A stretch of 64,000 nt of DNA from Clostridia bacterium (GTDB lineage Bacteria; Bacillota; Clostridia; Christensenellales; Pumilibacteraceae): NCBI GenBank assembly GCA_017623435.1, contig JAGAPD010000033.1, positions 26,587 through 90,586 of the forward strand, read 5' to 3'. The notes below the pieces were generated by a model. It was given only the letters and a program-made list of their open reading frames with translations. It did not search any database and was not told where the DNA came from. This document shows positions 1 through 35,806 of this stretch, in pieces (within the stretch, counting starts at the first letter, position 1; every line of letters starts with the position of its first letter). The position numbers and the translations under genes were made by a program.

Positions 1-1663
1 CGGTGTATTCGTACAAAATTACGTTGTTGCAAACGAACGTAGGGCTTGAGTTTCCTGCTACGAACGCGCCCTCACAGTCGGGAAGCTCGCTTTTCGTAAC
101 GTGGAAAAGCACGTTTTCAATCGTTCCCCAAACTGAAATACCGATAATAGACGAATATTGCTCGCTTGAAATAGTTACGTTAGTGAACGCTACGTTCTTA
201 ATAACGCCCGTTTTCCACAAGTAGCCGAACAATCCACCCTGTCTATAAACGCCACCGTTTATAGTATATCCGCGACCGTCAAAGATTCCGCAAAAGCCTG
301 CGCCTTCTTCAGCGTCTTTCCAAATACGCATATATTTGTGTTCGTTGATATTCTGTACTGCTCTATCGCCAAGGTCTATATTTGCGCCTAACACGAAGTA
401 ACCGTCGTAACTTTCTTCCGTACCCGTGTTGTTCCAAAGCTCCCAAGTGATAGATTTTACGTTAGGCGCGTAGGACTCAAGCGCCAAAAGCTCGTCCGCC
501 GTCGTTATAACCTTTGTCACTACGGTAACGGAAACGGCGTAGGTAATATCGTCAAGCTCAACTCCGATTGCTCTTTCGCCCGTAGCCATTGCGCTCTTTT
601 TGAAAGAAACGGCCGTATTTTGCGCCGTGAAAGCAATATCGATTGCCTCTTCGCCCGTGATATCCGTAATTTTTACTACGTTATCAGCCGTATAAGAAGT
701 GCCCTCGAAAAGCGCGCTTAAATCTACGCTTGCATTCTCTCCGCTTTGGGCGTTGAGGTCGATTAAGTCGTCAAACGCGACGCTGACGGTGGGCTTTTCT
801 ACCACGACGGGAAGATTTACGGTGAAATCCTTGCCGTTAGAGGTATACGTCGCGCTGATTATTACTTCGCCTACGCCCGTAGCCGTGATTACGCCACCGT
901 TTACGGTTGCAATTTCGTCGTCCGCACTTTTCCAAGTGATAGAAGGCGACGATAAAAGCTGACCGTTTTCGTAAATTTCAGCATTTACGGTAGCGCTCTT
1001 TTTATAGTCCGCTACCTCGCTCGTGCCCAGCACTAAGCTCGTTTCGCTAAGCGTAAAGGATACGTTTTCTATTACGGTTACGCTGATATTTTCGTAGGTC
1101 TGATATCCAAGATAAATCGCCGTTACGGTTACGGTCGTACTGCCCGGCTTTAGCGCGGTAATTACGCCGTCCAAAACGCTTACTATCTCGGAATCTTCTA
1201 CTAAATAAGCAAAGGTCGCGTTAAGCGTATTTCCTTTATAATTAAGCGTAGGCGTTACGATAAAGGTGTTACCTGCTTTAATCGTTTCTTCCGTAGAGCC
1301 AAGCGTGAGCACGGGCACTTGACCGCTGGATACGATCGTTATAGTGCAAGTCGCGCTCTTATCCCCTACGCTTGCCGTAACGGTAACTTCTCCCTCCGCA
1401 AGCGAGGTAACGACGCCACCGTTTACGGTAGCTTTGCTCGTGTCCGAGCTCGTCCATACCACTTCGCCCGTCAAATTTTCTTTACTCGCCGTAAGCGTTA
1501 GCGTTTCGTACAAGTCCATTGACGCCACGCTTTTATTAAGCGTTATTTTTTCAACGGGCGGTGGCGTAGGATCGCTTGGCGTAGTAGGCGCACAAGCAAA
1601 TATCATACTCAGCGCCGTTACCGTCAAGACGATAAGCGCCAAAATTTTTGAAAATCTTTTCAT
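1..1663 (-). CDS. Cassette-1 gene C: BIG2 + beta-helix-module surface lipoprotein, 3' end cut by window edge (paralog of 6929..11527)
   Basis: Missing from the ORF track because it runs off the left edge. The reverse complement has AGGAGGG then ATG at 1663..1661. It reads MKRFSKILALIVLTVTALSMIFAC (lipobox) and stays open to nt 1. The N-terminus aligns with the 1532-aa paralog (ETLTLTASKENLTGEVVWTSSD). It ends in the module motifs DGYFVLGANIDLG, FDGRGYTINGG and GGLFGYLWKTGVIKNV. Confidence 0.85.
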   Translation of the reverse strand, partial: MKRFSKILALIVLTVTALSMIFACAPTTPSDPTPPPVEKITLNKSVASMDLYETLTLTASKENLTGEVVWTSSDTSKATVNGGVVTSLAEGEVTVTASVGDKSATCTITIVSSGQVPVLTLGSTEETIKAGNTFIVTPTLNYKGNTLNATFAYLVEDSEIVSVLDGVITALKPGSTTVTVTAIYLGYQTYENISVTVIENVSFTLSETSLVLGTSEVADYKKSATVNAEIYENGQLLSSPSITWKSADDEIATVNGGVITATGVGEVIISATYTSNGKDFTVNLPVVVEKPTVSVAFDDLIDLNAQSGENASVDLSALFEGTSYTADNVVKITDITGEEAIDIAFTAQNTAVSFKKSAMATGERAIGVELDDITYAVSVTVVTKVITTADELLALESYAPNVKSITWELWNNTGTEESYDGYFVLGANIDLGDRAVQNINEHKYMRIWKDAEEGAGFCGIFDGRGYTINGGVYRQGGLFGYLWKTGVIKNVAFTNVTISSEQYSSIIGISVWGTIENVLFHVTKSELPDCEGAFVAGNSSPTFVCNNVILYEYT

Positions 1664-1679
1664 CTTTCCCTCCTGATAA

Positions 1680-3641
1680 TTATATACCCCAGTTATCCCA
1701 CAAACTGTCAACGGTGTTAGCCTCTCTTATATGAGAAATACCAAGGCGCGTTACGTCCTCCTTAAAGGATTTCTTCATCTCTTGAAGCTCGTCGTCATTG
1801 TAGTAGGTAAAGTAAAGCGTAATATCAATCAAGCGATACGGCAAAGTTTCCATACAAATACGATCGTAAAGCTTTTCGTACAAAGCGTAATCGCTGTTTT
1901 TGAGTGGCTCGATTGCGTCGTAAGCGTCATCAAAGTGACCAAGCATCGTATTAACTATTCCCTTGGGCCAGTATTCAGTCTTTATAAGGTCGTTTTTGTA
2001 AGGTCCGGGGATATTTTTCTCCGTTTTAAGATACTCAAACCAAGTGTTATAAAGTTTAAGCGCCTCCTTCATCGGTCCTGCGGCGTTTTTGTAGAAGTTG
2101 TTCATAAAATCTTCGATAAGTTTATTTTTATCCGCCAAAACGTTCCATTGAAGCTTTGCTTGTAAATACTCTTTCAAGAACGCCCAGTCAGTCGAATAAG
2201 AGTTATTAAACTGCATTTGGTCAAAAATATAACTTACGTCGTGCGCCTTAAAGAAGATATAGTTGGGTTGCATCTGGTTAAGACTATTGTAGGGATCGAA
2301 ATAATCAGGGAATCTCGTGCTATACACCCACAAATACATATGCGAAGAAAGTACGCACCACTTATCCATCGTTTCCCTATAAGTAAGATTGTCAACGTGA
2401 TAGAAGTCACGAAGGTAATCCGCACGAATAGGCGCATAAAAACAGAACACGTTGTCACGGCAGATTACGCTCTCGTCAATAGGCACCCACTCGCCCTCTG
2501 CGTTTTTAACCACGGGCGCGTTAGTCGTCGTATTATACGCAAAGAAACAGATATTTACTTTGCGGTCAATATTATTTGCGGTAAAATATTCTTCAAGCGC
2601 TATGGATACTTTGTTGCAAAAATGCACGATATCCGCTCCGTCCGTGCCGTACTTTTCAAATTTTCCTTTACAAACGTCGCATCTACACCAAGTATTATAG
2701 TCCTCTTGCGTGATGGATATATTGTCAACGTCGGGGTTTGACTCAATTACGTCGATAAAGGCTTTCATAAACTCGTCAAACATAAGCTTTTGCTCTTCCT
2801 CGTCGCCGTGAGCGTTCAAGCAAAGCTGAGTTAAGTCCGTGCTATACCACTTGGGGTGGCTTTCAAACCACTTACTCGTAGGAAGATATTCTAGCGTGTT
2901 ATGCACGAAACCGTTATTCGGCCCCATCCAAATCTTGCCGGAAGTATTGAACGCGTTGTGTCTTAATCTAAGTCGCGTAGTCTTATCGTTATTGAGCCAA
3001 CCTTGCGCGGCTAAACGGTAAGTAAAGTCAGGCACGTCCACGATATCAAATTCGTGCAATTTCAAATCGCTAGTAACGCTATACACGGTTTCGTTTTGCG
3101 AATACGTTTCCCAGCCGATTTCGTGATAAAGGAACTCGTAAGCCGACCAAAGCGTACCAAAGTCGCCTCCGCCAACGAGGAATACGGAGTTTCCTTTCGT
3201 GATAATCGTATATCCCGAGCGAGTAAGAAGATCTTTATCCACTTCTATTCCCGCCTTTTCAACGAGCGCGGTGTCACCGAAAGAAATATACTTGCTGTTA
3301 TCGTCGTAAGGAAGGTCTTCGTCGCTGATAACGGCTATTTCTGCACCCGTTGCAAGACCTAAAAATAACTGAATTTCACTTGCTCCAAAGGTGGTTTCTT
3401 CGTTAGTAGGATTTTTAGGGATTACGATTTTGTAATCGGACTTGCCGTTCGTTACCAAATCCTTCGTGCCGGGAGTAACGTTTATTTCGTGAATGGTATG
3501 AAGCGTTTCTTTCATTGCCTCGCTTGTCACCGAAAACGATCCTTTGGGCTTTTCACCCGTAGAAGTATCGCACGCAACTGCGCTAAAAGCAGTTACTACG
3601 CTAAATAGAACAAGAAGAATTTTGCTAAATATTTTTTTCAT
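1680..3641 (-). CDS. Cassette-1 gene B: DUF4838-like putative glycoside-hydrolase-type lipoprotein
   Basis: 653-aa ORF with signal peptide and lipobox (FSAVAC), starting 14 nt after gene A stop. The N-terminal segment resembles the GH20b/GH67N-like part of DUF4838 (DYKIVIP, GYTIITKGNSVFLVGGGDFGTLWSAYEFL). It carries an ITQEDYNTWCRCDVC motif. It aligns along its full length with 11544..13526. Confidence 0.8.
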   Translation of the reverse strand: MKKIFSKILLVLFSVVTAFSAVACDTSTGEKPKGSFSVTSEAMKETLHTIHEINVTPGTKDLVTNGKSDYKIVIPKNPTNEETTFGASEIQLFLGLATGAEIAVISDEDLPYDDNSKYISFGDTALVEKAGIEVDKDLLTRSGYTIITKGNSVFLVGGGDFGTLWSAYEFLYHEIGWETYSQNETVYSVTSDLKLHEFDIVDVPDFTYRLAAQGWLNNDKTTRLRLRHNAFNTSGKIWMGPNNGFVHNTLEYLPTSKWFESHPKWYSTDLTQLCLNAHGDEEEQKLMFDEFMKAFIDVIESNPDVDNISITQEDYNTWCRCDVCKGKFEKYGTDGADIVHFCNKVSIALEEYFTANNIDRKVNICFFAYNTTTNAPVVKNAEGEWVPIDESVICRDNVFCFYAPIRADYLRDFYHVDNLTYRETMDKWCVLSSHMYLWVYSTRFPDYFDPYNSLNQMQPNYIFFKAHDVSYIFDQMQFNNSYSTDWAFLKEYLQAKLQWNVLADKNKLIEDFMNNFYKNAAGPMKEALKLYNTWFEYLKTEKNIPGPYKNDLIKTEYWPKGIVNTMLGHFDDAYDAIEPLKNSDYALYEKLYDRICMETLPYRLIDITLYFTYYNDDELQEMKKSFKEDVTRLGISHIREANTVDSLWDNWGI

Positions 3642-3655
3642 TATGCTTATCCTCC

Positions 3656-6600
3656 TTACTCGGTTACCGTCAACTCTTGGTCGACGATGGTTGCATTACC
3701 CGTGCCGTCTACTGCAAAATAGCGTAGGACGTACGTGCCCGTTTCGCTTGCAATAAACGAATTACAGTCTTTCATATTGACCGTATAGATAGTACCCATA
3801 GGACAGATTACGAAACAACATACGGTCATTTCTTCTTCGGGCGTGTTGTCGTCAATCGCGCTGAAGGGGGCGAACACGACAACCGTATTTTTCTTAACGC
3901 TCGTAGCGTTATTGCGTGAAATAACGATTACCGATTTTTCCTTATCAATAACGGTGAAAAGCACGGAAGCATTTACGGCGTTACCTGCGTCGTCTTTCGT
4001 GGAATAAGTGACGCGATACTGTCCGTACATAGAAAGTTTTATTTTATATTCTCTGTCTGCAGAAACGCCACCAAGAAGCAATCCCTCCTCGTCCGTTACG
4101 ACGTTACCAGTAGGATCAAAGACGCGAACGGTAAGGCTAACCTCGGGATCAAGCACATCTGATGCAATCGCCGGGAAAAGGGTTACCACCTCGTTAATCT
4201 CACGCGTACGCGTTCCTTCCGTCGTGGTGCTGATACGGGGCGCAACACGGTCAAGTACCGTCTTTTCTGCAATTTCTTGTCCGTTAATTCTTCTTACTCT
4301 TATTATAGCCGTGTCGCTAACTCCCTCAAAGTCAAAGCAAAGTCTTACTCTACCCGACGCAAATCCGTCAAACGCGCTTCCGTCCTCCCACTTAGTTACG
4401 GATATAAAGTTCGTACCGTCAAGCGCGATTTTTTTACCGTAGGCGTCGTAGGAAACGTTAAACTCGCCGTTAGCGTAATTAATCGCCGTTTCGTAAGGTC
4501 CTGCGCCGTTTATAAGCACGTTGGTGTTATTTAAATTACCTTGACTTAACTTCAAAACGAGCGATTTGTTAGAATCGTTTTCGTCCGTCAATTTTACCGT
4601 TACGCTTTGAGGCGCATCGTTTTCGTTGCCCATAAAGAAGTTGCACGCAAATTTATCAGCAATAAGAGGATTGATAAATTCGACGCTTGCGTTCTCAGTA
4701 GCGCTAATCTCAACGTAATCATTCTGGGTAGTTACGGTTGCGTTTTCAGTAAAGAAATATCTACCCACGTCTAATCTCTGATTTTCGTTAACTAACCTTT
4801 TAACGTTGACTACCGTTACGGGGTATTCCCTTACGGTCGTGCCTGCGCTATTCGTGGACTCGTATCTGATTTTCATCGTTTTGGTAGCGCCCACTTCGTT
4901 TAGCTTAAAGTTTGCAATATTGCCGTCAAGCGTGCGCTCACCGTCGTCGTCAGTTATCTTGATAGTAACGGGCACGTTAACTTCCTGCGCACTAAAATCA
5001 CGCGCTATAATCGTAGGCAAAGTATAATCGTAGCCTGCGATAAAACGTTTAGGAAGTACTACGTCGCGTTCAAACACGGGTTTGTCGGACACGGTAACTG
5101 CCACTTCGTATTCGTAAACGGCTTGCGTAGAAACGTAATCAATTGCGGTAAATCTAACGGTATAAGTATCTGCGCGCATAGGTAAGAACGCGTTATCAAT
5201 AATTTCCACTTCCTTGCCGCTACCATCCGTAACAACGGGCGTGATTGCAATTTTACCGCTACCGCCAGATGCGCTTGCCGTAGGCAAGGTGATAAGTTCG
5301 CCGACGCTTGACGAGGTAACTCTGTTATTCGTTTCAACGTTAAGGGAAACGGGCGTGCTCGTTTTGTCACAAACGATAACGTGCACGATTTCACTCACGT
5401 TACCCGAGTAGTCAGTCGCCTTATAAACGACGTAGTAATTACCGGGCACTTCAGGCGTAAATTTGCCGTCCTTAACGCTTACCGAGCTTTGCGTGGGCGA
5501 TCCGTAGTTTTGATATACCCTAACGCTGGGCGTGAGTTTACCCGAATAAGAATCGATTGCAGTTGCGCTGAACACGGGATAAGGTTGACCTGCTACCGCG
5601 CGAGGAAGATTTTTCGCGTCGTAGCCAAGCGTATCAATATCAATACGGGGCGCGTCGTTATCAGTAATTTTAAGCGCAGTAAGGTCCTCGTTCGCTACGG
5701 AAGTAATCACAAAATTAAAGTTATTCTTGCTTAAATCTTTTGCGGTAATAGACAAGAACACTTCACCCGTAGAAAAGCCTTCCCACGGCTCGCTAAAATG
5801 CTTGGGATTATCAAGGTCAATAATTTCTCTATCGCCGTAGTCTGAACCTTGCGTAAGCACTTTTTTAGTGTCTAAATCAAGAAAAAGCTGGAGTTGTCCC
5901 GAACTGTTCTTTGCCGTTAAGAAATTTTCGTTAGCCTCTCCTTTGGTGTCGCATCCATAGAAAGTGAAAACTTGCGGAAAACCGTAACTGTTATTTTGAT
6001 GCAATTTATTAAACTTCTTTTCGTAGCCCGTCAAAGGTTGGAAGGATGCACCTGCTTGGATATAACTCGTAGCTGCGGCGTATCCGTTACCCGAAATACT
6101 ACTTATAACCCTGATTTTTACGAAGTTTGTGGGATCGTATATATCGGTGAGTTTTATCGTAAACTCCTGTGCCTCGTATTCACGAATAGTTTCGGGCGTT
6201 ACGTACATTGAGATAAAAGGATTTTTATCTCCAAGCCCGTTTAGGTTAATCACCTTATTAAACTTAAACTCGCCGTTAGCGCTTAGTCCAACCATAATAC
6301 CTTGCGTATTGGGCGTAAGAGGATGCGCGCCATAAGAAGCAGAGTTATTCTTACCTACCACGTCGTATAAATTACTATATACGGAAAACTTCTTACTCGT
6401 CGTAAGATACTTTCCGCTATCAGTCATAGCCCAATAGGTAACCGTATATTCCCCCATCGTCGCGAGCGTAATTTTATCAGTAACGTATCTCGTTCCGTCA
6501 GGACAGTTTATATACTTGTTTGCCTTAATTTGCTCGCCCCCGTCCGTAAAGTAAGCGTCGGGCACGGCAATCTCCGTACCTGCTTTGTACTCGCTCTCAA

Positions 6601-6733
6601 ACCCAGCGATTACGTTACTTACGTCCGCAGACGCAAAACCCTTAGTCCCCACGACTAACGCTATTCCGCTAATCGCAAGTACCAAAGCAAAGAAAATGGG
6701 CAAAAATACTTTCGTCCGCACTCTTCTCTTCAT
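3656..6733 (-). CDS. Cassette-1 gene A: N-terminally membrane-anchored multi-Ig-domain surface protein
   Basis: Long ORF. The likely start is ATG at 6733 (MKRRVRTKVFLPIFFALVLAISGIALVV), preceded by AGGAGGA; the track start at 6769 lacks an RBS. A single N-terminal hydrophobic helix is followed by repeated Ig-like segments with DUF5011/HYR-like signatures (ATDYSGNVSEIVHVIV, AVDGTGNAT, KDDAGNAV). Confidence 0.85.
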   Translation of the reverse strand: MKRRVRTKVFLPIFFALVLAISGIALVVGTKGFASADVSNVIAGFESEYKAGTEIAVPDAYFTDGGEQIKANKYINCPDGTRYVTDKITLATMGEYTVTYWAMTDSGKYLTTSKKFSVYSNLYDVVGKNNSASYGAHPLTPNTQGIMVGLSANGEFKFNKVINLNGLGDKNPFISMYVTPETIREYEAQEFTIKLTDIYDPTNFVKIRVISSISGNGYAAATSYIQAGASFQPLTGYEKKFNKLHQNNSYGFPQVFTFYGCDTKGEANENFLTAKNSSGQLQLFLDLDTKKVLTQGSDYGDREIIDLDNPKHFSEPWEGFSTGEVFLSITAKDLSKNNFNFVITSVANEDLTALKITDNDAPRIDIDTLGYDAKNLPRAVAGQPYPVFSATAIDSYSGKLTPSVRVYQNYGSPTQSSVSVKDGKFTPEVPGNYYVVYKATDYSGNVSEIVHVIVCDKTSTPVSLNVETNNRVTSSSVGELITLPTASASGGSGKIAITPVVTDGSGKEVEIIDNAFLPMRADTYTVRFTAIDYVSTQAVYEYEVAVTVSDKPVFERDVVLPKRFIAGYDYTLPTIIARDFSAQEVNVPVTIKITDDDGERTLDGNIANFKLNEVGATKTMKIRYESTNSAGTTVREYPVTVVNVKRLVNENQRLDVGRYFFTENATVTTQNDYVEISATENASVEFINPLIADKFACNFFMGNENDAPQSVTVKLTDENDSNKSLVLKLSQGNLNNTNVLINGAGPYETAINYANGEFNVSYDAYGKKIALDGTNFISVTKWEDGSAFDGFASGRVRLCFDFEGVSDTAIIRVRRINGQEIAEKTVLDRVAPRISTTTEGTRTREINEVVTLFPAIASDVLDPEVSLTVRVFDPTGNVVTDEEGLLLGGVSADREYKIKLSMYGQYRVTYSTKDDAGNAVNASVLFTVIDKEKSVIVISRNNATSVKKNTVVVFAPFSAIDDNTPEEEMTVCCFVICPMGTIYTVNMKDCNSFIASETGTYVLRYFAVDGTGNATIVDQELTVTE

Positions 6734-6795
6734 AAGTCCTCCTATCCGTATTACTATATCCAGTGTCAAAACGCACTTCTCATTATACTACCATT

Positions 6796-6824
6796 ATTAT
6801 ATAGTATAGGTTTTGCAATGTCAA
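6796..6824 (-). promoter_or_regulatory. Sigma-70-type promoter of cassette 1 (TTGACA-N17-TATAAT)
   Basis: Minus strand reads TTGACA (6824..6819), a 17-nt spacer, then TATAAT (6801..6796), about 60 nt upstream of the gene A start. Confidence 0.7.
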
Positions 6825-6864
6825 TTGTAAAATCTATACTTTTTAATTGTAGAAAATGAAATGT

Positions 6865-6907
6865 TTTTTTTAAAAAAATACACTCCGCTGGTTTTAAGCG
6901 GAGTGTA
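6865..6907 (-). terminator. Intrinsic terminator of cassette 2
   Basis: Stem ACACTCCGC / GCGGAGTGT (6881..6889 with 6899..6907). On the minus strand it is followed by a T8 run, 20 nt downstream of the 6929 stop. Confidence 0.75.
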
Positions 6908-6928
6908 TCTCGATAAAATATTTGCTTT

Positions 6929-9900
6929 TTACGCGTTATATGCGCTTACGAGCTCGATTGCAGTTGCCCAGTCGCCAGACGCGGTAGCCGCCCAAGCGGT
7001 ATAGTCCGCCATATTAGCAAAAGTCTTTGCCGTAGCGGTATCGTTAGCGTAAAGGTTTGCGCCCTGATAGTTAGATACGGGATCAATCGCAGGCGTCGTA
7101 CCGCCGTTTACTCTGCCAGTGTGTTTAGCCGCGAAAGGAAGAACTACGTTTCCACTCATTGCGTTGATAGCGATTACGTTGGTAAACGTTGCGCCAGTAT
7201 TCAAATTAGCATTATTATACTTCGTGCTCGTAATAATACCTGCAAGCGAATGGTTAAGCGTTTGACCGAATTCAGTAAGAATACCTACACAGTTGATATA
7301 CTTCGTAGTCGTGGAATTGTTACTGTTAGATGCAAACAATCCTGCACCTACGTTGGGGTTGCCGTCACCACCCGTGATTTTTCCGATTACGATTACGTTT
7401 TCAATCGTTCCGGAATTTGCACAAGTGATTGCGCCCGAACTTCCGTTTACAGTTACGTTCTTAATAACGGTGTTCTTGAACACGCCCTCGGCGTACATCA
7501 TTCTAAACAAGCCTTTGTCCTGACCATCAATTTTGTAGTTAGAAAGGGTATATCCACGTCCGTCGAATACGCCTCTCCAGCCACCAATCCAGCCACTACT
7601 CCATTGTCCCATTGCAGGATTGATTGACCTGTTTTCAAGGTCAATGTTTGCACCCAAAGCAACGTATCCCGTAAATCCTGCAGTCTTATCACCACTTACA
7701 TAGGATGCAGACTCAATGAAGTTAATGAATTCTTGCTTAGTCTTAATAACTTTATTAAGTACTTCAAGCGAATAAATATACTCATTTGCTTCCGTCAAGA
7801 CAATAAGCGTACGATCACCTGCGGTAAGGGTACTCTTATTTACGGTGACCGTTTCGCCACTGGCAGTATACGCAACCTCAACGTCGTTAACGGTTACTTT
7901 CTTGATTTGCTCACTAAGTCCTGCTATCGTTACGGCAAAGGTTGCATTTCCGTCACTAAGCTCTACGTCAACGGGGTTAGCCGTAAAATCGTGTTTCGTT
8001 GTTACGATCGCTTTTACCGTTACGTCTTTCTTAACGTTTGCATTTGCTTCCCAAGTGATAGTTACGGTAAACGTAGTGCTTTGGCTAAGCGTATTTGCAA
8101 TTTTAAGCACCTTACCATCAACCGTTGCAACGGACGAATCCGCGGTAGTGGTTACGTTAAAGCCGTAGCCGTCAATTTCGGGGAATACGTATTCCTTTCC
8201 GACGGTAAGCTCAATCATCTCGATATCGCCAAGCGCGTCAAGCACGGCTTGCTTTTGACTGGCAAAGATTGCTCTATCGCCCGTCATATCCCAAACGTTA
8301 GACCAGCCTTTACCATCAATACCTACGTCATCAAGTGTTTCCGTAATAGCGTTAGGCTCAAGAATACCAGTAAACTCGTTGCTCGTCGCTCTCTGCTGAC
8401 CAACGTAAGAGTCGGTAAATACAAACGTATTTTCGTACGTAGCACCGCTAAGAGATTTATGGTTGATAAATGCACTCAATCTGCCTGCATTAGTTTTATT
8501 CAAGTCGGTGTATTCGTACAATACTACGTTCTTGCAAACAGCAGTAGATCCTACGTTCATTGCAACGAAAGCGCCTTCACACTCGGGCATTTTACTTTCA
8601 ACAACGTGGAACAATACGTTTTCAAGTCTGCCCCAAAGCGAAACACCGATAATATTAGAGAACGCTTCAGCGCTAATTTTTGCATTAACAAAGGCAACGT
8701 TCTTAACTACACCAGTTTTCCAAAGGTATCCGAACAAGCCACCTTGTCCATATACACCCCCGTTAATGGTGTAACCTTGTCCATCAAATACGCCACTAAA
8801 GCCAGCGCTAGCTTCAACGTCATACCAAATACGTACAACGGATTTTACGTTTTTAACTTTACTATCTCCAAGGTCAATATTTGCACCAAGGATAAAGTAG
8901 CCGTCATAGTTTTCTTCAGATGCAGTACCACCCCAAAGTTCCCAAGAGTAAGTTTTCTTATTGGGAGCATAGGATTTAAGATTAAGAAGTTCATCTGCCG
9001 TAGTAATAATTTTGGATACGTTAAGCACGTTGAGTCTGTACGAGAAATCCTCGCCCGAAACGGTGAGCTCTACTACGCCGTGCTGTTTTGTTGCCTTATA
9101 GCCTGCCTGATCGAAGGTAAGCGTCGTACCTGCTTGAGTAAAGTCAAAGCCCACGCCGTTTACCGCGATATCGGTTACTTCCTTGCCGTCGATCTGATCA
9201 AGGTTAAGAACGAACGGCTCGTTACCACCCATATCGTACTGCGCTACCGGCTCGCCACGAAGGTCAACGATAGACATAGGCAAAATTCTTATTTGCTTTT
9301 CGGTTACTTCGTCAATTGAGAAAATGGAATAGGTTTGGAGCGTTACGGTAACGGGCTCAGTTACGGTAGACGCAACGATAAGCTTGCCGTTATCGTAAGA
9401 TACGCCCTCAATGTCTTCCTTAATAGATACGACCGAGAATTTAGCAGGGGTAGTAGCGATAGTATAAGACGCGCTTTCGCCCTTTGCTAAAACGTACTTG
9501 TCGTTTACGCCTACGAACGACGACGCGCCCTTGTCAACGTAGTTAAGGTACGCCTTAAACACGGGAACGCCCGAGGTCGTATCCCAGTATTTCTCGTCCC
9601 ACGCCGAAAGCGTAAACGAATTGCTTTTTGCAAGTGCCGCGTAGTTAGCGAAAACGTCTACGGGGTTAGATTGCGAGGAAAGAGTACGAATGGACGCGCC
9701 CTCGCCTATTGCGTGGCAGTTAGCAAACGTGCCGTTGTTTTCCCAGCCTGCAAAAAGCGCACTCGTGGTGCTATCAGCAGGATTAGTTACGTCGGCGATA
9801 ACGTTTTTATAGACGGGATTTGCGCCCTTGGTGGCAACGATACCGTGAATGCCCCAGCCTGCGTTGGAGGTTACGATACTGCCCTGAACGTAAACGTTTT

Positions 9901-11527
9901 CCATCGTACCGAAGTTAAGCGACGCTACTACCGCCGAGTTTGCGATGGATTTTGCGTTGATGAACGCGATATTTTTGATCACGCCACCCGTTCCCAAAGT
10001 ACCTACGAAGCCACCGTTTGCAACCGACGGGGTAAGTCCGATAATGGCGTGGCCGTTACCGTTTACCGTGCCGTGGAAACCAGCGATATCGCCTTTGTTA
10101 GGACTGATGCTCGTACCGGGTAATTCCTTATCCGTGTTACCGTTGCTCATACGACCGCACCAATCGGGAACTGCCTTGTTATAAGCGATATCGTTTCCAA
10201 GCAAGAAGTAACCGTGGAATTGGTACACCTTACTTACGTTCGCGCTAACGCTTGCCGCCGTTATATCCGCTGCCGAATGCTCGGATCTGTCCCAAACGAC
10301 CTTAGTGTTCTTGTCGGTGAGCGCGTAGGTTTTCATATTGTCAATATGCGACGCGGTCGTGATAATCTTGGTTGCGACGATCATTTCGATATTGTACGAA
10401 ACGACGTTGAATTCAAGGTTAAGCGACTTCTCGCCTGCCGCAAGCTTAGTCTTTTCAATAACGATATTTTCGCCGTTTACCGTGAAGGGAACTTCGTAAT
10501 TATCGTCGGTAAGGTCAACGATTTTTACGATATCGCTTGCCGAAACTCCCGTTCCTTCAAGCGAGGAGGTAAGATCAAGCGAAATGGTAGTACCACTCGT
10601 TCCGTTAAGGTCGATTGCAGGCACGGTGAAGGGTGCGTCCACAACGGGCTTTTTAACGGTTACGGGAAGGTTAATCGTGAAGCTTTCGCCGTCGGTGGCA
10701 TAGGTCGCTGAAATAATCGTCTCGCCCACTCCTACCGCGGTGATTACGCCGTTTTCTACGTTTGCGATATTCGCGTTATCCGTAGCCCAAGCAATCACGG
10801 GCGAAGTAATTTTCTCATTATCCTTTTGCACGTTGGCGGTAACCGTTTTGTTGGTTACCATACCAGCCAAAGCGCTAAGACCAAGGTCAACGGAGGTTTC
10901 GTTGAGATAAAACACTACGTTTGCCGTTACGGTAACGTTAATTACCTTGTACGCGGTAAAGCCCTTATAAGTAGCGGAAACGGTTACTTTCGATTTGCCC
11001 GTTCCTATTGCTTTGATTTTGCCGTTTTCAACGCTTACGACGTCATCCTTTTCAACGATATAATCAAAGGTTGCGTTTACGGGCACGCCCTTATAATTAA
11101 AGGTTGCGCCTATAACGATTTCGTCGCCCTTCCTTACGGTTTCGTCGCCCGTTTCAAGCGAAAGCGTAGGTACTTGACCGCTATTAATTACGGTAACCAC
11201 GCAAGACGCGCTCTTACCGCCTACGCTAGCGGTAACGGTCGTTTTTCCCTCGCTAACGGGAGTTACTACGCCACCGCTTACGGTTGCTTTACTCTCGTCC
11301 GAGCTGGTCCAAACGATTTCGCCCGTAAGATTTTCTTTCGTCGCCGTAAGCGTAAGCGTTTCGTATATATCAACGGATGCTGAAGTACGATCAAGCGTTA
11401 CTCCTACATTCGCTTCGGGCGGAGGCGTTCCACCACCGCCAGGTTGCTCGCTCTGACACGCAACCAGCGTACTAAGCGCCATTACGAAAGCGAGCACAAA
11501 CACAAAAAGCTTTGAAAGTCTTTTCAT
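6929..11527 (-). CDS. Cassette-2 gene C: 1532-aa BIG2 + three beta-helix-module (GLUG-like) surface lipoprotein
   Basis: Signal peptide and lipobox (LSTLVAC) with RBS AGGAGGG. N-terminal BIG2-like repeats are followed by three modules. Each module has G[YH]F.LG..I..., F.G.FDG.G[YH].I and GG(L)F/V G....G.I.N motifs (HGYFLLGNDIAYNK, DGYFILGANIDLGDS, TGYVALGANIDLENR). Confidence 0.9.
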   Translation of the reverse strand: MKRLSKLFVFVLAFVMALSTLVACQSEQPGGGGTPPPEANVGVTLDRTSASVDIYETLTLTATKENLTGEIVWTSSDESKATVSGGVVTPVSEGKTTVTASVGGKSASCVVTVINSGQVPTLSLETGDETVRKGDEIVIGATFNYKGVPVNATFDYIVEKDDVVSVENGKIKAIGTGKSKVTVSATYKGFTAYKVINVTVTANVVFYLNETSVDLGLSALAGMVTNKTVTANVQKDNEKITSPVIAWATDNANIANVENGVITAVGVGETIISATYATDGESFTINLPVTVKKPVVDAPFTVPAIDLNGTSGTTISLDLTSSLEGTGVSASDIVKIVDLTDDNYEVPFTVNGENIVIEKTKLAAGEKSLNLEFNVVSYNIEMIVATKIITTASHIDNMKTYALTDKNTKVVWDRSEHSAADITAASVSANVSKVYQFHGYFLLGNDIAYNKAVPDWCGRMSNGNTDKELPGTSISPNKGDIAGFHGTVNGNGHAIIGLTPSVANGGFVGTLGTGGVIKNIAFINAKSIANSAVVASLNFGTMENVYVQGSIVTSNAGWGIHGIVATKGANPVYKNVIADVTNPADSTTSALFAGWENNGTFANCHAIGEGASIRTLSSQSNPVDVFANYAALAKSNSFTLSAWDEKYWDTTSGVPVFKAYLNYVDKGASSFVGVNDKYVLAKGESASYTIATTPAKFSVVSIKEDIEGVSYDNGKLIVASTVTEPVTVTLQTYSIFSIDEVTEKQIRILPMSIVDLRGEPVAQYDMGGNEPFVLNLDQIDGKEVTDIAVNGVGFDFTQAGTTLTFDQAGYKATKQHGVVELTVSGEDFSYRLNVLNVSKIITTADELLNLKSYAPNKKTYSWELWGGTASEENYDGYFILGANIDLGDSKVKNVKSVVRIWYDVEASAGFSGVFDGQGYTINGGVYGQGGLFGYLWKTGVVKNVAFVNAKISAEAFSNIIGVSLWGRLENVLFHVVESKMPECEGAFVAMNVGSTAVCKNVVLYEYTDLNKTNAGRLSAFINHKSLSGATYENTFVFTDSYVGQQRATSNEFTGILEPNAITETLDDVGIDGKGWSNVWDMTGDRAIFASQKQAVLDALGDIEMIELTVGKEYVFPEIDGYGFNVTTTADSSVATVDGKVLKIANTLSQSTTFTVTITWEANANVKKDVTVKAIVTTKHDFTANPVDVELSDGNATFAVTIAGLSEQIKKVTVNDVEVAYTASGETVTVNKSTLTAGDRTLIVLTEANEYIYSLEVLNKVIKTKQEFINFIESASYVSGDKTAGFTGYVALGANIDLENRSINPAMGQWSSGWIGGWRGVFDGRGYTLSNYKIDGQDKGLFRMMYAEGVFKNTVIKNVTVNGSSGAITCANSGTIENVIVIGKITGGDGNPNVGAGLFASNSNNSTTTKYINCVGILTEFGQTLNHSLAGIITSTKYNNANLNTGATFTNVIAINAMSGNVVLPFAAKHTGRVNGGTTPAIDPVSNYQGANLYANDTATAKTFANMADYTAWAATASGDWATAIELVSAYNA

Positions 11528-11543
11528 TTTTCCCTCCTAAATC

Positions 11544-13526
11544 CTATTCTATTCCCCACGTTTTCCAGAGCTCGTCGATAGTAAGCTGTTCGTTATATCT
11601 CGAAATACCGATACGGTTTACGTCTTGCTTAAACGACATTTTAAGGTCAAGCAATTCACTATCGCTGTACTGCGTGAAGTAAAGCGTGATATCTATCTTA
11701 CGATATACTAAAGTTTCGATACAAATTCTGTCGTAAAGTCTGGCGTAAAGAGTAGGATCGGTCTGTTTAAGGGGCTCGATTGCCTTATACGCCTCGTCGA
11801 AAAATCCAAGCATAGTATCAACTACTCCCTTGGGCCAGTACTGCGTGGTAATAATGTTATTGCCGTAAGGTCCGGGAAGATTTTTCTCCGTTTTGAGGTA
11901 CTCAAACCAAGTGTTGTAAAGGTTAAGCGCCTTCTTCATAGGCTCGGCAGCGTCCTTATAGAAGTTGTTCATAAAGTTTTCGATAAGCTGTTCTCTATCA
12001 GCCAAAACGTCCCACTGAAGTTTTACCTGCAAATACTGCTTCAAGAAGCCCCAGTCAGTCGAATACGCGTTATTCCATTGCGTTTGGTCGAAGATATAGC
12101 TTACGTTATGCGCCTTAGACAAAATGTAGTTGGGTTGCATTTGATTGAGGTTGTTATAGGGTGCAAAGTAATCGGGGAATCTGGTGCTGTATACCCACAA
12201 GTACATTTCAGGAGCAAGCACACACCACTTATCCATCGTTTGCTTGTACGCCAAATTTGCGGAATCGTAGAAGTCACGAAGGTAGTCTGCACGGATAGGC
12301 GCGTAGAAGCAATAAACGTTAGGACGGCAGATTACGCTACTATCAATAGGCTCCCACTCGCCCGTGGTTTCGTTTTTAACGACGGGGGCTTCGGTCGTTC
12401 TGTGATAAGCAAAGAAACAAATATTAATCTTGCGATCGATATTGTTTGCCTCGAAGTATTCCTCGAGCGCTACGGACACCTTGTTACAGAAGTGAACGAT
12501 ATCCGCGCCGTCCGTGCCGTACTTTTGAAGTTTAGCACTACAAGTCTCGCAAGAGCACCATACGTTAACGTCCTCTTGAGTAATCGTAATATTCTCAATG
12601 CCGGGGTTAGCGTTAATTACGCCGATAAAGCTATCCATAAACGCCTGGAACATCAACTTAAATTCTTCTTCATCGCCTTGAGCGTTAAAGCAAAGTTGCT
12701 TTCCATCGGTACTGTACCACTTCGGGTGAGCTGCTTTCCACTTTTCGGGGGGAAGATACTCTAAAGTATTATGCCACGCGGGACCGGGGCCCATCCAAAC
12801 CTTACCGCCGCTGCTTTCGTCGTTGTGTCTCATGCGTTGGCAGGTTTCCTTGTCAGCGCGCACCCAGCCAAAGGTACTCATTCTGTAAGTAAAGTCGGGC
12901 ACGTCGATAAGATCAAATTCGTGAAGCTTTAAATTTGCAGTCGTATCGTAAACGATTTCGTTTTGAGAATAGATTTCCCAGTTGATTTCGTGCTTTAAGA
13001 ATTCGTAGCAACCCCAAAGCGTACCAAAGTCGCCACCGCCGATAATGAAGACCGAACTACCCTTCGTCAAAATGGTGTAGCCTGAGCGAGTGAGCATTTT
13101 TCTGTCCACGACGATATCTGCTTTTTCAATAAGCGCAGTTTCGCCGATAGAGATATACTTACTGTTAGCGTCGTAAGAAAGATTTTCGTCGTTGACGATT
13201 TCAAAGTACGCGCCCGTTGACTGACCTAAGAAAAGTTGAAGCTCGTTTGCGCCCGTATTAGTCTCATCGTAATCGGAGATTTTGGGGATTACGATTTTGT
13301 ATTCGGTTTTTCCGTCCACGACCAAATCTTTCGTACCAGTCGTTACGTTAATCTGGTGCAAAGTTTTAAGTTCTTCTTCCCAAGGGGACTGCGAAGGAGT
13401 AATAGTGCCTTTTAAATTGGTATTCATATTGTTTCCTCCCGTGGTGGTTTGGTCACACGCAACCGCGCTAACCGCCATCATTAAACTAAATATTATAAGG
13501 ATTATTCTCGTAAATATCTTTTTCAT
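11544..13526 (-). CDS. Cassette-2 gene B: DUF4838-like putative glycoside-hydrolase-type lipoprotein
   Basis: 660-aa ORF with lipobox (VSAVAC) and the same motif set as 1680..3641 (ITQEDVNVWCSCETC, GYTILTKGSSVFIIGGGDFGTLWGCYEFL). It starts 14 nt after the gene A stop. Confidence 0.8.
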   Translation of the reverse strand: MKKIFTRIILIIFSLMMAVSAVACDQTTTGGNNMNTNLKGTITPSQSPWEEELKTLHQINVTTGTKDLVVDGKTEYKIVIPKISDYDETNTGANELQLFLGQSTGAYFEIVNDENLSYDANSKYISIGETALIEKADIVVDRKMLTRSGYTILTKGSSVFIIGGGDFGTLWGCYEFLKHEINWEIYSQNEIVYDTTANLKLHEFDLIDVPDFTYRMSTFGWVRADKETCQRMRHNDESSGGKVWMGPGPAWHNTLEYLPPEKWKAAHPKWYSTDGKQLCFNAQGDEEEFKLMFQAFMDSFIGVINANPGIENITITQEDVNVWCSCETCSAKLQKYGTDGADIVHFCNKVSVALEEYFEANNIDRKINICFFAYHRTTEAPVVKNETTGEWEPIDSSVICRPNVYCFYAPIRADYLRDFYDSANLAYKQTMDKWCVLAPEMYLWVYSTRFPDYFAPYNNLNQMQPNYILSKAHNVSYIFDQTQWNNAYSTDWGFLKQYLQVKLQWDVLADREQLIENFMNNFYKDAAEPMKKALNLYNTWFEYLKTEKNLPGPYGNNIITTQYWPKGVVDTMLGFFDEAYKAIEPLKQTDPTLYARLYDRICIETLVYRKIDITLYFTQYSDSELLDLKMSFKQDVNRIGISRYNEQLTIDELWKTWGIE

Positions 13527-13540
13527 TTTCGTTTACCTCC

Positions 13541-16500
13541 TTATTCCGTTACCGTCAATTCGTAGTCGACGAAAGTCGCGTTTCCTCTCTCGTCACACGC
13601 AAAATAACGGAGTACGTAGGTGCCCGTTTCGTTCGCAACGAAGGAATTGCTATCCTTCATATTCACGGTGAAGATAAGACCGCAAGGACGAACTACGAAA
13701 CAGCAAAGCGTAAGCTCTTTTTCACTCGTGGAGTTGTCAACGGCAATGAAGTTTGCAAGTCCTACCTTCGTACCCTTCTTAACCGAAGTGGGATTGTTTT
13801 GCGTAAGCGTGATGACGGGCGCTTCGGGATCGACTACGTTCAAAAGAACGGGCGTACCTGATTTGTTTCCGTTATCGTCCTCGGTGCTGTAATTGATACG
13901 GTACTCGCCGTATTTATTAAGAACGAATTGATATTCTCTATCAGCAGGAACGTTGTTCAGCGCTATTCCGTCAACGCTGGTTATTACGTTACCTCCCTTG
14001 TCCGTTACGCGCACCGTAAGGGACACGTTGGGATCAAGCACGTCACACGCTACTGCGGAACGAACGGTAACGATTTCGTTGATCTTTCTCATACGCGTGC
14101 CGTCGCTTGGTGCGTAAATACGGGGATTTACACGGTCGAAAAGCACTCCGGAATTAAGCTCCTGCGTATTAAGTCTTCTTACCTTTACCGTTGCTTTTCC
14201 CGTTACGTCTTCAAACTCGATATACATACGCACCTTGTTAGATGCAAATCCGTCGAATTCGCTTCCGTCAGCCCAAGTATTAACGGTAAGATAGTTAGTA
14301 CCGTCAATAGTAATTTTTTTCGTAAGAATATCGTAGCCCAAGTTAAACTCGCCGTTGTTGTAATTTACCGCGATTTCGTACGGACCTACGCCGTTAATAA
14401 GCGTGTTCGTTGCGCCCGAATTATTCTTGAAAAGTCCCACGACTAATTTCTTATCCGCGTTTTCGCCGTCTTCAAGAACGACGTTTAATTTTCCAAGCGA
14501 GTTGCCTGCGTTTACAGTAAAGAAGTTGAGTGCAAAACCAAAAGCGCTAAGCGGATTAATAAACTCAACCGTACCGTTTTGGTTGGAAATAAGCTCTACG
14601 TCCGTTTCGGTCGCGCTTACGGTAACGTCCTCGCTATAGAAATACTTGCTGGTGTCCAGTATTGCTCGACCGCTTTCAGCAATCTTTTTAACGTTAATAA
14701 CCTTTACGGTGTACGACTTTTCGGTCGTGCCGTTAGCGTTAGAAGAAACGTACTTGATCGTCATATCTTTAGTAGCGCCCGCTTCGTTCACTTTAAACGT
14801 AACCTTGCGGTCCGCGCCAAGCGTTCTTTCGCCGTCGTCGTCCGTTACTTCAATAGAAACGTTCTGCTCCAATTTTCCGTTGTAGAAGTCGTACGCTTTA
14901 AGCTCGGGAATGACGTACTCGGTATCGGCGATAAAATATTTAGGAATTGACGCTCCCGTTTCAAACACGGGCTTTTTGGAAAGCGTTACTACGTGCTCGT
15001 ACGAATAAGTCTTTTTCGTACCTGCGTAGTCGGTCGCAACGAATTCTACCGTATAACTACCGTTCGAAAGGGGCTGGTAAGTTCCGTTAGTGATTTCAAC
15101 GGCTTTACCGCTTGCGTCGGTTACGAAGGGGGTTACGGTCACGAAACCACTACCGCCCGTCGTAGTTGCGTCAGGGAGAGTGATAATTTCGCCCACGTTA
15201 GAGGCTACTACTCTGTTTTCCGTGTCAACGTTGATGGAAATGTCTACGCCCGTTTCGTCACAGCTAACGACGTGTACCACTTCGCCTACGTTGCCCGAAT
15301 AGTCGGTTGCGCTGTAAACGACGTAATAATTACCGGGAGCGTTGGGGGTAAACTTTCCGTCAACTACGCTTACGGTGCTTTGTGCAGGCGAGCCGTAGTT
15401 CTGATAAACCTTCACTTTTGCTTCATTCTCGCCAGAATAGGGATCGACTGCGGTTGCGCTGAACACGGGATAAGGCTGACCTACTACTGCACGAGGAAGA
15501 TCGTTTTCGTCGTAGCCAAGCGTATCTATCGAAACGTAAGGCGCGCTACTGTCAACGAGCTTCGTTTCGGTGAGGTCTATTCCGCCAATATCCGTGATTA
15601 CGAAGTTAAGATGCGATTTCTTTAAGCCTTTGGTGGTAATTGAAAGGAAAACCTCGCCCGTGGTAAAACCGTCCCAAAGCTCGGAAAAGTGCGCGGGATT
15701 GTCAAGGTCGATAATTTCTCTGTCGCCCGTGCTAGAGCCCTGCGTCATAACCTTCTTGCTGTCGTGATCGAGGAAAAGCTGGAGTTGACCGTACGCGTTT
15801 TTCGCGGTGAGGAATTGCTCGCTCGTTTCGCCCGTGCCGTCACAGCCAAAGAAAGAGAAGTTTTGACCAAAGCCGTAAATATTGTTTTGGTGAAGTCTGT
15901 TCCACGCCTTTTCGTAGCCCGTGGTGGGTTGGAAAGCTGCGCCTGCCTGAATGTAAGCAACGTTGTGGCCGTACTTTCTACCGTCCTGCGTGCACGTTAC
16001 TTTAATTCTAACGTAGTTGCTATCGTCGTAGATATCGGTAAGCTTTATCGTGAACTCTTGAGCGTCCATTTCTTGCACCGTTTCGGGCGTCATATACATC
16101 GAAATGAAGGGGGACGTACCGTTCAGTTTCTCCAAATCAATTACTTGGTTGAACTTAAATTCACCAGTCGCGTTAATCGCTACCATAATGCCGTTCGTGT
16201 TGGGCGTGAGGGGGTGCGCTCCGTAGGACGCTCTGTTGGCTTTGCCCACTACTTCGTACAAATTGTTGTACACGTAGAAGTTAGCAGTTTCGGAAAGATA
16301 CTCTCCGCCCTCCGTCATCAAGAAGTACTCGACGGCGTATTTGCCCATTACCGTGGGCGTGAACTTGTTTACCGAATAGGAAGTGCCGTCGGGGCTATAA
16401 ACGACTTTGGTCGCTTTTACCTGACTGCCACCTACAGTAAAGTAAGCGTCGGGTACGTCGATTTCCGTTCCTACCGCGTACTCGCTTTCAAAGGATGCTA

Positions 16501-16624
16501 TCGCGTCGGTTACGGACGCGGACGCGTTACCTTTCGTAGCAAACAGCATAGTTAGTCCGCTGATTACCAGCACAAAAGCAAGCACGATTGGAACCAGAAT
16601 TCTAGTCAATTGCTTTGTCTTCAT
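13541..16624 (-). CDS. Cassette-2 gene A: N-terminally membrane-anchored multi-Ig-domain surface protein
   Basis: Likely start is ATG at 16624 (MKTKQLTRILVPIVLAFVLVISGLTMLF), preceded by AGGAGGA; the 27-codon extension in the track has no RBS. It is collinear with 3656..6733 along the whole length. Confidence 0.85.
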   Translation of the reverse strand: MKTKQLTRILVPIVLAFVLVISGLTMLFATKGNASASVTDAIASFESEYAVGTEIDVPDAYFTVGGSQVKATKVVYSPDGTSYSVNKFTPTVMGKYAVEYFLMTEGGEYLSETANFYVYNNLYEVVGKANRASYGAHPLTPNTNGIMVAINATGEFKFNQVIDLEKLNGTSPFISMYMTPETVQEMDAQEFTIKLTDIYDDSNYVRIKVTCTQDGRKYGHNVAYIQAGAAFQPTTGYEKAWNRLHQNNIYGFGQNFSFFGCDGTGETSEQFLTAKNAYGQLQLFLDHDSKKVMTQGSSTGDREIIDLDNPAHFSELWDGFTTGEVFLSITTKGLKKSHLNFVITDIGGIDLTETKLVDSSAPYVSIDTLGYDENDLPRAVVGQPYPVFSATAVDPYSGENEAKVKVYQNYGSPAQSTVSVVDGKFTPNAPGNYYVVYSATDYSGNVGEVVHVVSCDETGVDISINVDTENRVVASNVGEIITLPDATTTGGSGFVTVTPFVTDASGKAVEITNGTYQPLSNGSYTVEFVATDYAGTKKTYSYEHVVTLSKKPVFETGASIPKYFIADTEYVIPELKAYDFYNGKLEQNVSIEVTDDDGERTLGADRKVTFKVNEAGATKDMTIKYVSSNANGTTEKSYTVKVINVKKIAESGRAILDTSKYFYSEDVTVSATETDVELISNQNGTVEFINPLSAFGFALNFFTVNAGNSLGKLNVVLEDGENADKKLVVGLFKNNSGATNTLINGVGPYEIAVNYNNGEFNLGYDILTKKITIDGTNYLTVNTWADGSEFDGFASNKVRMYIEFEDVTGKATVKVRRLNTQELNSGVLFDRVNPRIYAPSDGTRMRKINEIVTVRSAVACDVLDPNVSLTVRVTDKGGNVITSVDGIALNNVPADREYQFVLNKYGEYRINYSTEDDNGNKSGTPVLLNVVDPEAPVITLTQNNPTSVKKGTKVGLANFIAVDNSTSEKELTLCCFVVRPCGLIFTVNMKDSNSFVANETGTYVLRYFACDERGNATFVDYELTVTE

Positions 16625-16696
16625 ATAATCCTCCTGTTTATTTGTTACACACCGAGCGATTTTTACGCTAAAACGCTCGACAATATATACACTCTT

Positions 16697-16725
16697 ATTA
16701 TACAAGATTTAGTACGAGTTGTCAA
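16697..16725 (-). promoter_or_regulatory. Sigma-70-type promoter of cassette 2 (TTGACA-N17-TATAAT)
   Basis: Minus strand reads TTGACA (16725..16720), a 17-nt spacer, then TATAAT (16702..16697), about 70 nt upstream of the gene A start. Confidence 0.7.
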
Positions 16726-16828
16726 TACTAAACGCAATATTTTTTTATATTCGCTATTATACAAACTGGCCGTGCATGCGCGCGAGATTCTTCGCTTCGC
16801 TCGAGAATGACAGCGCGCGCAAAATTAC

Positions 16829-16848
16829 GACCACACCGCTCGGTCAAA
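16829..16848. repeat. Direct repeat copy 1: GACCACACCGCTCGGTCAAA
   Basis: Identical 20-mer recurs 88 bp downstream. It contains the inverted half-sites GACC-N9-GGTC. Confidence 0.9.
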
Positions 16849-33804: not shown

Positions 33805-33814
33805 AATTTCTCCG

Positions 33815-35797: not shown

Positions 35798-35806
35798 ATC
35801 ACAAAG

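Follow-up and report, generated by a model that had tools for sequence, protein, structure and literature searches.

Importer-linked degradation of glycans at the cell surface is already known from several bacterial systems. Gram-positive polysaccharide utilization loci (gpPULs) combine a regulator, an ATP-binding cassette (ABC) importer dependent on a solute-binding protein (SBP), and surface glycosidases. In bifidobacteria, a membrane-tethered lacto-N-biosidase of the glycoside hydrolase 20 (GH20) type releases an N-acetylhexosamine (HexNAc) disaccharide, which is taken up by the galacto-N-biose/lacto-N-biose (GNB/LNB) ABC importer and degraded inside the cell. The present study concerns two tandem three-gene cassettes, A1-B1-C1 and A2-B2-C2, found in a 64,000-nucleotide stretch of DNA (hereafter the window) from a Clostridia bacterium of the family Pumilibacteraceae (contig JAGAPD010000033.1, positions 26,587 to 90,586, assembly GCA_017623435.1). 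The cassettes probably represent the capture-and-cleave front end of a Gram-positive glycan-utilisation module, feeding an ABC importer in trans.

Protein B carries the DUF4838 domain (Pfam PF16126). To regard this domain as functionally uncharacterised is out of date, as activities have now been assigned in the CAZy families GH163 and GH185. According to the account in PMC10570127, DUF4838 covers both families, which are distant relatives of GH20 cleaving beta-linked N-acetylglucosamine (GlcNAc). The same account describes GH163 BT1035 of Bacteroides thetaiotaomicron as a surface endo-beta-N-acetylglucosaminidase cutting the GlcNAc-beta1,2-mannose linkage in complex N-glycans, and GH185 Sp_0475 of Streptococcus pneumoniae as a 6-sulfo-beta-GlcNAcase with the active-site residues Q174, H227, D309 and Y436 and a demonstrated substrate-assisted retaining mechanism (PMC10570127).

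Both BT1035 and B contain PF16126 and are surface-exposed. A locus with uptake machinery and cytoplasmic or periplasmic glycosidases is a further trait in common with the B family, the one around BT1035 being a complex N-glycan polysaccharide utilization locus, and GH130 and beta-mannosidase-like neighbours recur at some A-B loci. However, a C-terminal F5/8 type C domain is found in BT1035 but not in B, and BT1035 operates together with SusC/D in a diderm, whereas B is a lipoprotein of a monoderm, with protein A and an ABC importer as its partners; the two are likened by their common domain and not by direct sequence similarity. Sp_0475 resembles B in its DUF4838 TIM barrel and in an equal Asp-Tyr spacing, and a substrate-assisted retaining mechanism would be expected in B as well. 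Unlike the lipoprotein B, Sp_0475 is a cytoplasmic enzyme and belongs to a cluster that lacks signal peptides.

The canonical module of related genomes resembles the gpPULs in having a regulator, a binding protein, two permeases, an extracellular glycosidase, binding proteins and cytoplasmic glycosidases. In the window cassettes, an exported, surface-tethered carbohydrate-active enzyme is present in the form of B1 and B2 (lipoprotein signal and DUF4838), but neither an adjacent SBP-dependent ABC importer nor an adjacent regulator was found. To our knowledge, a fixed component of about 1000 amino acids (aa) like A, placed directly after the permeases, is not a described feature of gpPULs. The lacto-N-biosidase and GNB/LNB transporter offer an analogy, in that the same logic of cleavage, import and degradation may apply; B is from a different enzyme family, and we know of no A-like or C-like partner of lacto-N-biosidase. 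Protein A resembles the staphylococcal surface proteins Aap, Pls and SraP, in which an L-type lectin domain is likewise followed by modules of the immunoglobulin (Ig)-like or cadherin-like type. It differs from them by an identity of about 10% and a template modelling (TM) score of about 0.45, by an N-terminal helix in place of an LPXTG motif and by its link to an importer, whereas the adhesins are LPXTG-anchored and not linked to importers. What is new is A as a constant partner, its fusions with B and, in this genome, a duplicated and apparently dismantled layout.

Conserved gene order around A and B

A profile of A alone was used to fetch 78 distinct metagenome loci (22-47% identity), and their open reading frames (ORFs) were scored with per-component profiles. 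Of 44 assessable loci, 42 had two permease genes directly upstream of A. In the remaining two, L068 and L072, the permeases come just ahead of an A ORF that is split or offset, so that the arrangement is effectively 44/44. The permeases were preceded by a binding-protein gene at all 35 assessable loci, and B was directly downstream of A or fused to it at 49 of 50. One fusion protein, P0106 (1631 aa), aligns to A1 over residues 6-1025 and to residues 67-659 of B1 over residues 1049-1631, and its B part has no lipid signal; a second A+B fusion was found in L062. The gene after B encoded a lipoprotein similar to C1 in about 22 of 36 cases, ranging in length from 227 to 2434 aa, and in the most distant subfamilies a cytoplasmic enzyme takes the place of C. 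Given the nearly invariant synteny of A, B and the importer and the variable gene after B, the fixed core of the module consists of binding protein, permease, permease, A and B, with C as a frequent, variable addition.

In the canonical operon, a binding lipoprotein of ~560-600 aa and two CUT1-type permeases are encoded ahead of A and B, usually with C as the last gene. The closest species-level genome match, a Pumilibacteraceae metagenome-assembled genome (MAG) with an A protein 59% identical to A1, has a binding lipoprotein of 580 aa, two permeases, A, B and a terminator, without C. Homologs of A at 31-49% identity showed the same gene order with a C-like lipoprotein after B. At four loci (L045, L046, L048 and L054; also L084) the binding-protein gene is directly preceded by a second A paralog, so that the genes run A, binding protein, permease, permease, A, B.

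The A family comprises at least 4240 representatives (50% clustering) at E<=1e-30, and the top 150 of these are all full-length, about 1000 aa. The family occurs in metagenome records with the labels human gut or fermentation and in MAGs of Clostridia and Izemoplasmatales. No paper describing the A family or the six-gene Gram-positive module was found in the literature library searched. The first-pass annotation had proposed a role in glycan binding or processing for the A-B-C triad, accompanied by no transporter. Homologs of A, B and C do occur together, C-like genes following B at most loci, and all results are consistent with the proposed role. The absence of a transporter is confirmed for the window, but does not extend to the family, in which the importer is a constant companion.

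The genes flanking the module in relatives were used as clues to its substrate. Regulators of the AraC (9), DeoR (4) and ROK (3) types and also HTH_20 were found, together with GH20/GH20C (5-6), GH2 beta-mannosidase-like (4-5) and Melibiase-family (GH27/36) alpha-galactosidase-like (5) enzymes. Further flanking genes encoded GH130 (3), GH78 (3), GH38 (2) and rhamnose catabolism (2), with single cases of GH35, GH3, GH1 and GH94. In the clade closest to A1 and A2, GH20C followed the module at 3/3 loci with enough downstream sequence, along with GH42, GH13 or GH43. The binding proteins of the module showed weak similarity to carbohydrate-binding proteins and to NgcE-type (GlcNAc/chitobiose) binding proteins. 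Judged by these neighbours and similarities, the module fits import of HexNAc-containing oligosaccharides that would be released by B. Module specificity clearly differs between subfamilies. As the neighbouring enzymes vary from one subfamily to the next, gene context does not fix the substrate of the window cassettes, which are without such catabolic neighbours.

Features of proteins A, B and C

B1 (11544..13526, minus strand) is a lipoprotein of 660 aa and B2 (1680..3641, minus strand) one of 653 aa. Their scores against PF16126 were 126.1 bits (E 2.1e-36) and 133.5 bits (E 1.2e-38), respectively, with a cut-off of 26.6, in agreement with the DUF4838 resemblance proposed earlier from the sequence. 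The B orthologs of L001, L002, L004 and L007 likewise matched PF16126. The N-terminal domain ahead of DUF4838 is weakly GH67N-like. The lipoprotein signal, AVAC, ends at Cys24, and this lipobox cysteine is kept in 45 of 46 B orthologs. D319, N348, Y374, W434 and Y446 (B1 numbering) were invariant in 46/46 orthologs, and H252, H267 and Q277 were conserved in 85-89% of them. D319 and Y446 are 127 residues apart, the same as D309 and Y436 of Sp_0475, a comparison of spacing and not of aligned positions. B is predicted to be a member of the DUF4838 superfamily with a GH20-related TIM barrel, a glycosidase of the type that cleaves beta-GlcNAc linkages. No relative of B was detectable by sequence in the PDB, where queries with all three proteins gave nothing useful except Ig-like modules.

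A cluster of four cysteines in B1, C279 and C324-x-C326-x-x-C329, lies just past the invariant D319 and is present in 38-40 of the 46 orthologs (83-87%). It may be a structural metal site. The cluster is not mentioned in the account that PMC10570127 gives of the DUF4838 domain and the Sp_0475 active site.

A1 (13541..16624, minus strand) has 1027 aa, counted from an ATG with AGGAGG ahead of it. A2 (3656..6733, minus strand) has 1025 aa and is identical to NCBI MBO5215667.1 (locus tag J6B79_05715, Clostridia bacterium MAG). Pfam and NCBIfam scans of A gave no significant family. An AlphaFold2 model of A1, built with 49 homologs (predicted local distance difference test, pLDDT, 88.5), was all-beta. 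At the N-terminus of A1, a membrane helix (10-24) and one Ig-like domain precede a lectin-like beta-sandwich (~123-350); three more Ig-like domains lead to a second beta-sandwich (~646-820), and the chain ends in two further Ig-like domains. A fold search with the whole model returned generic multi-Ig matches only (titin, complement and S-layer proteins), so that a domain-level model was required.

The lectin-like domain of A1, residues 118-352 (15569..16273, minus strand), was modelled as a concanavalin A (ConA)-like beta-sandwich with a pLDDT of 95.6. The leading Foldseek matches were the lectin domains of Aap and Pls and legume lectins, with TM scores of 0.43-0.47, and a legume-lectin domain from an archaeon was also among the best. 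The top entries were 7sie and 8g1l (Aap lectin domain), 7elv, 2gmp and 7sjk, with E values from 1.6e-4 to 5e-3 and TM scores of 0.36-0.47. GH16 and polysaccharide lyase 7 (PL7) enzymes, which have the same ConA-like fold, ranked lower with similar TM values. By these moderate matches, the domain is tentatively placed closest to the L-type lectin domains. Within it T196, D197, G319, F320 and G323 are invariant in the family, and Y199, D200, D306, D308 and W317 are nearly invariant; D197, D200, D306 and D308 are candidate metal ligands. A1 and A2, like B1 and B2, retain all residues that are invariant in their families.

All three products of each cassette had been described as exported or anchored. 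For B and C this is supported by their lipoboxes. The N-terminus of A has an uncharged stretch of 22 residues (median 22 in 49 family members), a length that fits a membrane anchor. AXA-like sites follow the helix in some family members, and cleavage of the helix is therefore possible too. No LPXTG-like motif was found in the last 60 residues of A1, A2, B1, B2, C1, C2 or the giant protein described below.

C1 (6929..11527, minus strand) is a lipoprotein of 1532 aa. C2 is encoded at 1..1663 (minus strand), where the N-terminal 554 of its 1511 aa are found, the rest lying beyond the start of the window. The full C2 gene was read from locus L087, which is sequence-identical to the window and extends past it. 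C1 starts with three Big_2-type Ig domains (~40-300), followed by three modules (~300-770, 773-1100 and 1190-1532). The modules, of about 400 aa, each combine an Ig-like domain with a glycine-rich unit which by eye resembles GLUG (G-F-x-G-x-F-D-G-x-G-x-x-I). In Pfam scans C2 matched Big_2 (PF02368; E 8.4e-11), and C1 matched HL_N-beta (E 3.4e-9) and Big-like (E 3.9e-4); PF02368 is also present in full-length C homologs. GLUG, named by the first-pass annotation as a family to be checked, was not confirmed, as neither C1 nor C2 matched PF07581 at E<=0.01. This family was found only in distant C homologs (P0196 and P0198, and faintly in the C protein of L004).

The two C proteins are about 51% identical over their first ~300 aa, which contain the three Big_2-type domains, and residues 329-1079 of C2 are 53.5% identical to residues 773-1530 of C1. 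Global identity is 30%. These block matches indicate an extra module near the N-terminus in C1 and an extra C-terminal module in C2.

A giant lipoprotein is encoded directly upstream of cassette 1, outside both cassettes (17187..30587, minus strand). It has about 4466 aa when counted from an MKKVKL lipoprotein-signal start, the ORF 17187..30674 corresponding to 4495 aa. Besides Flg_new_2 repeats and a Big_2 domain at its N-terminus, it contains many C-type modules that share 27-40% identity with C1, and its C-terminal motif ATWDTNFWTTD.DGLPI.KSV is also found in C2. The giant protein is thus a third C-like paralog.

Duplicated cassettes and their surroundings in this genome

The gene order A-B-C is the same in both operons, which lie on the minus strand within the first 16.7 kb of the window. 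Intergenic gaps were 14 nt between A and B and 16 nt between B and C, and GGAGG precedes each start codon. Each cassette has a promoter matching the sigma-70 consensus TTGACA-N17-TATAAT at 12/12 positions, at 16697..16725 for cassette 1 and 6796..6824 for cassette 2 (both minus strand); these were the only such matches in the 17.5 kb scanned. The cassettes are separated by an intrinsic terminator (6865..6907, minus strand) consisting of a hairpin (~6906..6880) with a 15-bp stem, of -22 kcal/mol, followed by U7. The operon structure given by the first-pass annotation, with its two same-order operons, short gaps, strong ribosome-binding sites, single perfect promoters and separating terminator, was reproduced in full.

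Inverted repeats were observed at both promoters. In cassette 1 the -35 hexamer lies between the arms of a 7-bp inverted repeat, TTTAGTA-N11-TACTAAA (16732..16726 and 16714..16708). The cassette 2 promoter is inside an inverted repeat at 6803..6840, with arms of 17 bp that are complementary at 15/17 positions, over the -35 hexamer. The repeats are possible operator sites, with no regulator gene close by. A relatively G+C-rich non-coding spacer of about 390 nt (16730..17120) separates the A1 promoter from the terminator of the giant gene. Within the spacer, a 20-nt sequence, TTTGACCGAGCGGTGTGGTC, occurs twice in direct orientation without mismatch (16829..16848 and 16917..16936), for which the chance expectation is none. 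An Rfam scan of the window gave no RNA family, the matches near 17.1 kb being to the giant gene's terminator only. A structured RNA at 16760..17100 in the spacer was rejected, the folding being no more stable than that of shuffled sequences (z = -0.96).

End-to-end identity was 57% between A1 and A2 and 67% between B1 and B2. An early estimate by eye had put all three pairs at about two thirds identity, aligned over their full lengths. This was accurate for B. The A pair is also collinear but less similar than estimated, while the C pair falls short on both counts, its modules being shuffled. In a neighbour-joining tree A1 grouped with the transporter-linked clade P0002/P0003/P0004, and A2 was outside. 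Likewise, B of the Pumilibacteraceae MAG is 70% identical to B1 and 67% to B2. The position of A1 inside the transporter-linked clade, with A2 outside, indicates that the duplication predates that split and that cassette 1 is the ortholog of the transporter-linked module. This agrees with the earlier view of an old duplication of the triad as a functional unit.

The 64-kb window had no profile match to the module's binding protein or permeases, even at E<=10, and no transporter relic. Pfam scans of the other window ORFs revealed no ABC-transporter gene and no regulator beside either cassette. With the LPXTG scan empty as well, the lack of transporter, regulator and sortase signals reported earlier for the window was upheld. 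Downstream of C2, in L087, an Eda-type aldolase, gerA/B/C and ispDF were found, and no binding protein or permease.

A search with the binding protein of that transporter-linked module retrieved a 60%-identical protein, J6B79_01005, from the same MAG, with the locus-tag prefix of A2. Its twin in ENA is on scaffold L094 of the same assembly, ERZ28654753. Two tandem genes for module-type binding proteins of 587 and 583 aa are located there (L094 8121..11752). The two products share 71% identity, and their identities with the binding protein of the closest transporter-linked relative are 54% and 60%; the first copy is without a canonical lipobox. Each gene has its own TTGACA-N17 promoter, and the two have a common upstream motif, TTTTTTACAAAAyTATTGACAAGrCGTATA. 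The pair has minDE and mreB/maf on its two sides, and no permease genes adjoin it. As the binding proteins and the A-B-C unit are found at separate tandem loci, the ancestral operon appears to have been taken apart in this organism, both of these parts being present as tandem pairs.

The other window genes include uvrA, uvrB and a divergent dinB-type polymerase gene (30994..37173), directly upstream of the giant lipoprotein gene. With such housekeeping genes beside it and no mobile-element genes seen, the surface-protein block is in an ordinary chromosomal context. A cell-envelope polysaccharide cluster at 44966..52200 (minus strand) encodes a DegT-type aminotransferase, a Bac_transf initiating transferase, two GT2 enzymes, a CDP-glycerol glycerophosphotransferase, a DXD sugar transferase and a 536-aa ORF without a Pfam family. 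Three further ORFs had no Pfam family (E<=1e-3 or 1e-4): 37924..39297 (minus strand, 457 aa), 39438..40685 (plus strand, 415 aa) and 53276..55432 (minus strand, 718 aa).

Proposed role of the cassettes and alternatives

In the role proposed here for the cassettes, a glycan would be held at the cell surface by A, a membrane-anchored Ig chain with two lectin-like beta-sandwiches, and by the modular, fast-evolving C. B, positioned next to A or bound to it, would then cut a HexNAc-type bond in beta linkage, by the same substrate-assisted retaining mechanism as its relatives. The released oligosaccharide would be taken over by the module binding protein and imported by the permeases, energized by an ATPase encoded elsewhere, as is usual for CUT1 systems. 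Cytoplasmic glycosidases, typically GH20C, would complete the breakdown. With the operon split into separately transcribed, duplicated pieces, the cassettes of this genome would have to act in trans with an importer encoded elsewhere. The gene anatomy, homologies, synteny, fusions and fold similarity behind this proposal are observed; glycan binding by A and C, the bond cut by B, the substrate and the coupling in trans are inferred.

Several observations weigh against this role. No permease, ATPase or regulator was located in the window, and there are no permeases beside the L094 binding-protein genes, so that the coupling in trans is unproven. The cassette promoters are strong and constitutive-looking, without the sugar regulators seen beside relatives. 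The enzymes neighbouring the module vary by subfamily, and some loci have rhamnose genes. The catalytic residues of B were placed by spacing and not by alignment to a characterised enzyme. The match of A to the lectin fold is moderate (TM about 0.45), the fold is common to GH16 and PL7 enzymes, and A would be secreted instead of anchored if its N-terminal helix were cleaved. Finally, the giant adhesin-like lipoprotein adjoining the cassettes would also fit a role in adhesion, freed from uptake.

Such an adhesion or colonisation island, in which A, C and the giant neighbour would bind glycans of the host or of dietary particles while B trims the target, is considered unlikely. The multi-Ig architecture of A, whose closest fold matches are Aap, Pls and SraP, all of them adhesins, would suit it, as would the shuffling of C modules beside a 4495-aa C-like paralog, the lack of any transporter or regulator in 64 kb and the strong consensus promoters. 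However, at effectively all other loci A and B go together with an ABC importer, amid catabolic enzymes and sugar regulators. The same assembly has kept two module-type binding proteins, which argues for retained uptake, and the active-site-like residues are intact in both B1 and B2. Slightly less likely still is that A is itself an enzyme, a ConA-like jelly-roll glycanase or lyase such as GH16 or PL7, which would make the first cut and leave B to trim the products. The fold matches of the A domain include GH16 (VvEG16), a beta-1,3-glucanase and PL7 lyases at TM values like those of the lectins, the acidic residues D197, D200, D306 and D308 are conserved in it, and A is the most strictly conserved component apart from the transporter. 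But lectin domains hold the top fold ranks, no GH16 or PL7 signature and no Pfam enzyme family was detected in A, and the conserved aspartates fit a lectin-type metal site equally well.

Instead of foraging, the cassettes could also serve to turn over or remodel the envelope of the cell itself, as in the recycling of a HexNAc-containing wall polysaccharide. This is the least probable of the alternatives and is regarded as quite improbable. Relatives of B cleave beta-GlcNAc linkages according to PMC10570127, a wall-polysaccharide synthesis cluster is found at 44.9-52.2 kb, and the tandem binding-protein genes are situated between minDE and mreB/maf. On the other hand, the wall genes are transcribed separately, at a distance of more than 28 kb, and the neighbours of the module in relatives are catabolic glycosidases for mannose, galactose, rhamnose and HexNAc together with AraC, DeoR and ROK regulators, as is typical of foraging loci. 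Capture and cleavage of glycans for import is preferred as the role of the cassettes.

A more specific role for A is put forward tentatively, as rather less likely than not to be correct. A could be the hitherto unrecognised, obligate extracytoplasmic partner of one lineage of CUT1 importers, a stalk of lectin and Ig domains anchored in the membrane that docks B, to which it is fused in some species, and hands the oligosaccharide to the binding protein. The assembly would be a monoderm counterpart of the SusCDEFG utilisome of Bacteroidota, and in this genome its parts would come from separate duplicated loci. If this is true, a single shared permease pair could serve two specificities, provided by the two binding proteins and the two A-B-C sets.

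The A-B pair marks a large and unstudied family, widespread in gut Clostridia and without a Pfam or NCBIfam model. The module ties the under-explored DUF4838 superfamily, which is useful for work on N-glycans and sulfated glycans, to a defined importer, so that gene context could point the way to new specificities. It is also a candidate for an organised complex of surface enzyme and transporter in Gram-positive gut bacteria. The duplicated and apparently dismantled layout in this genome offers a natural experiment on whether the parts of such a complex need to be encoded together in order to cooperate.

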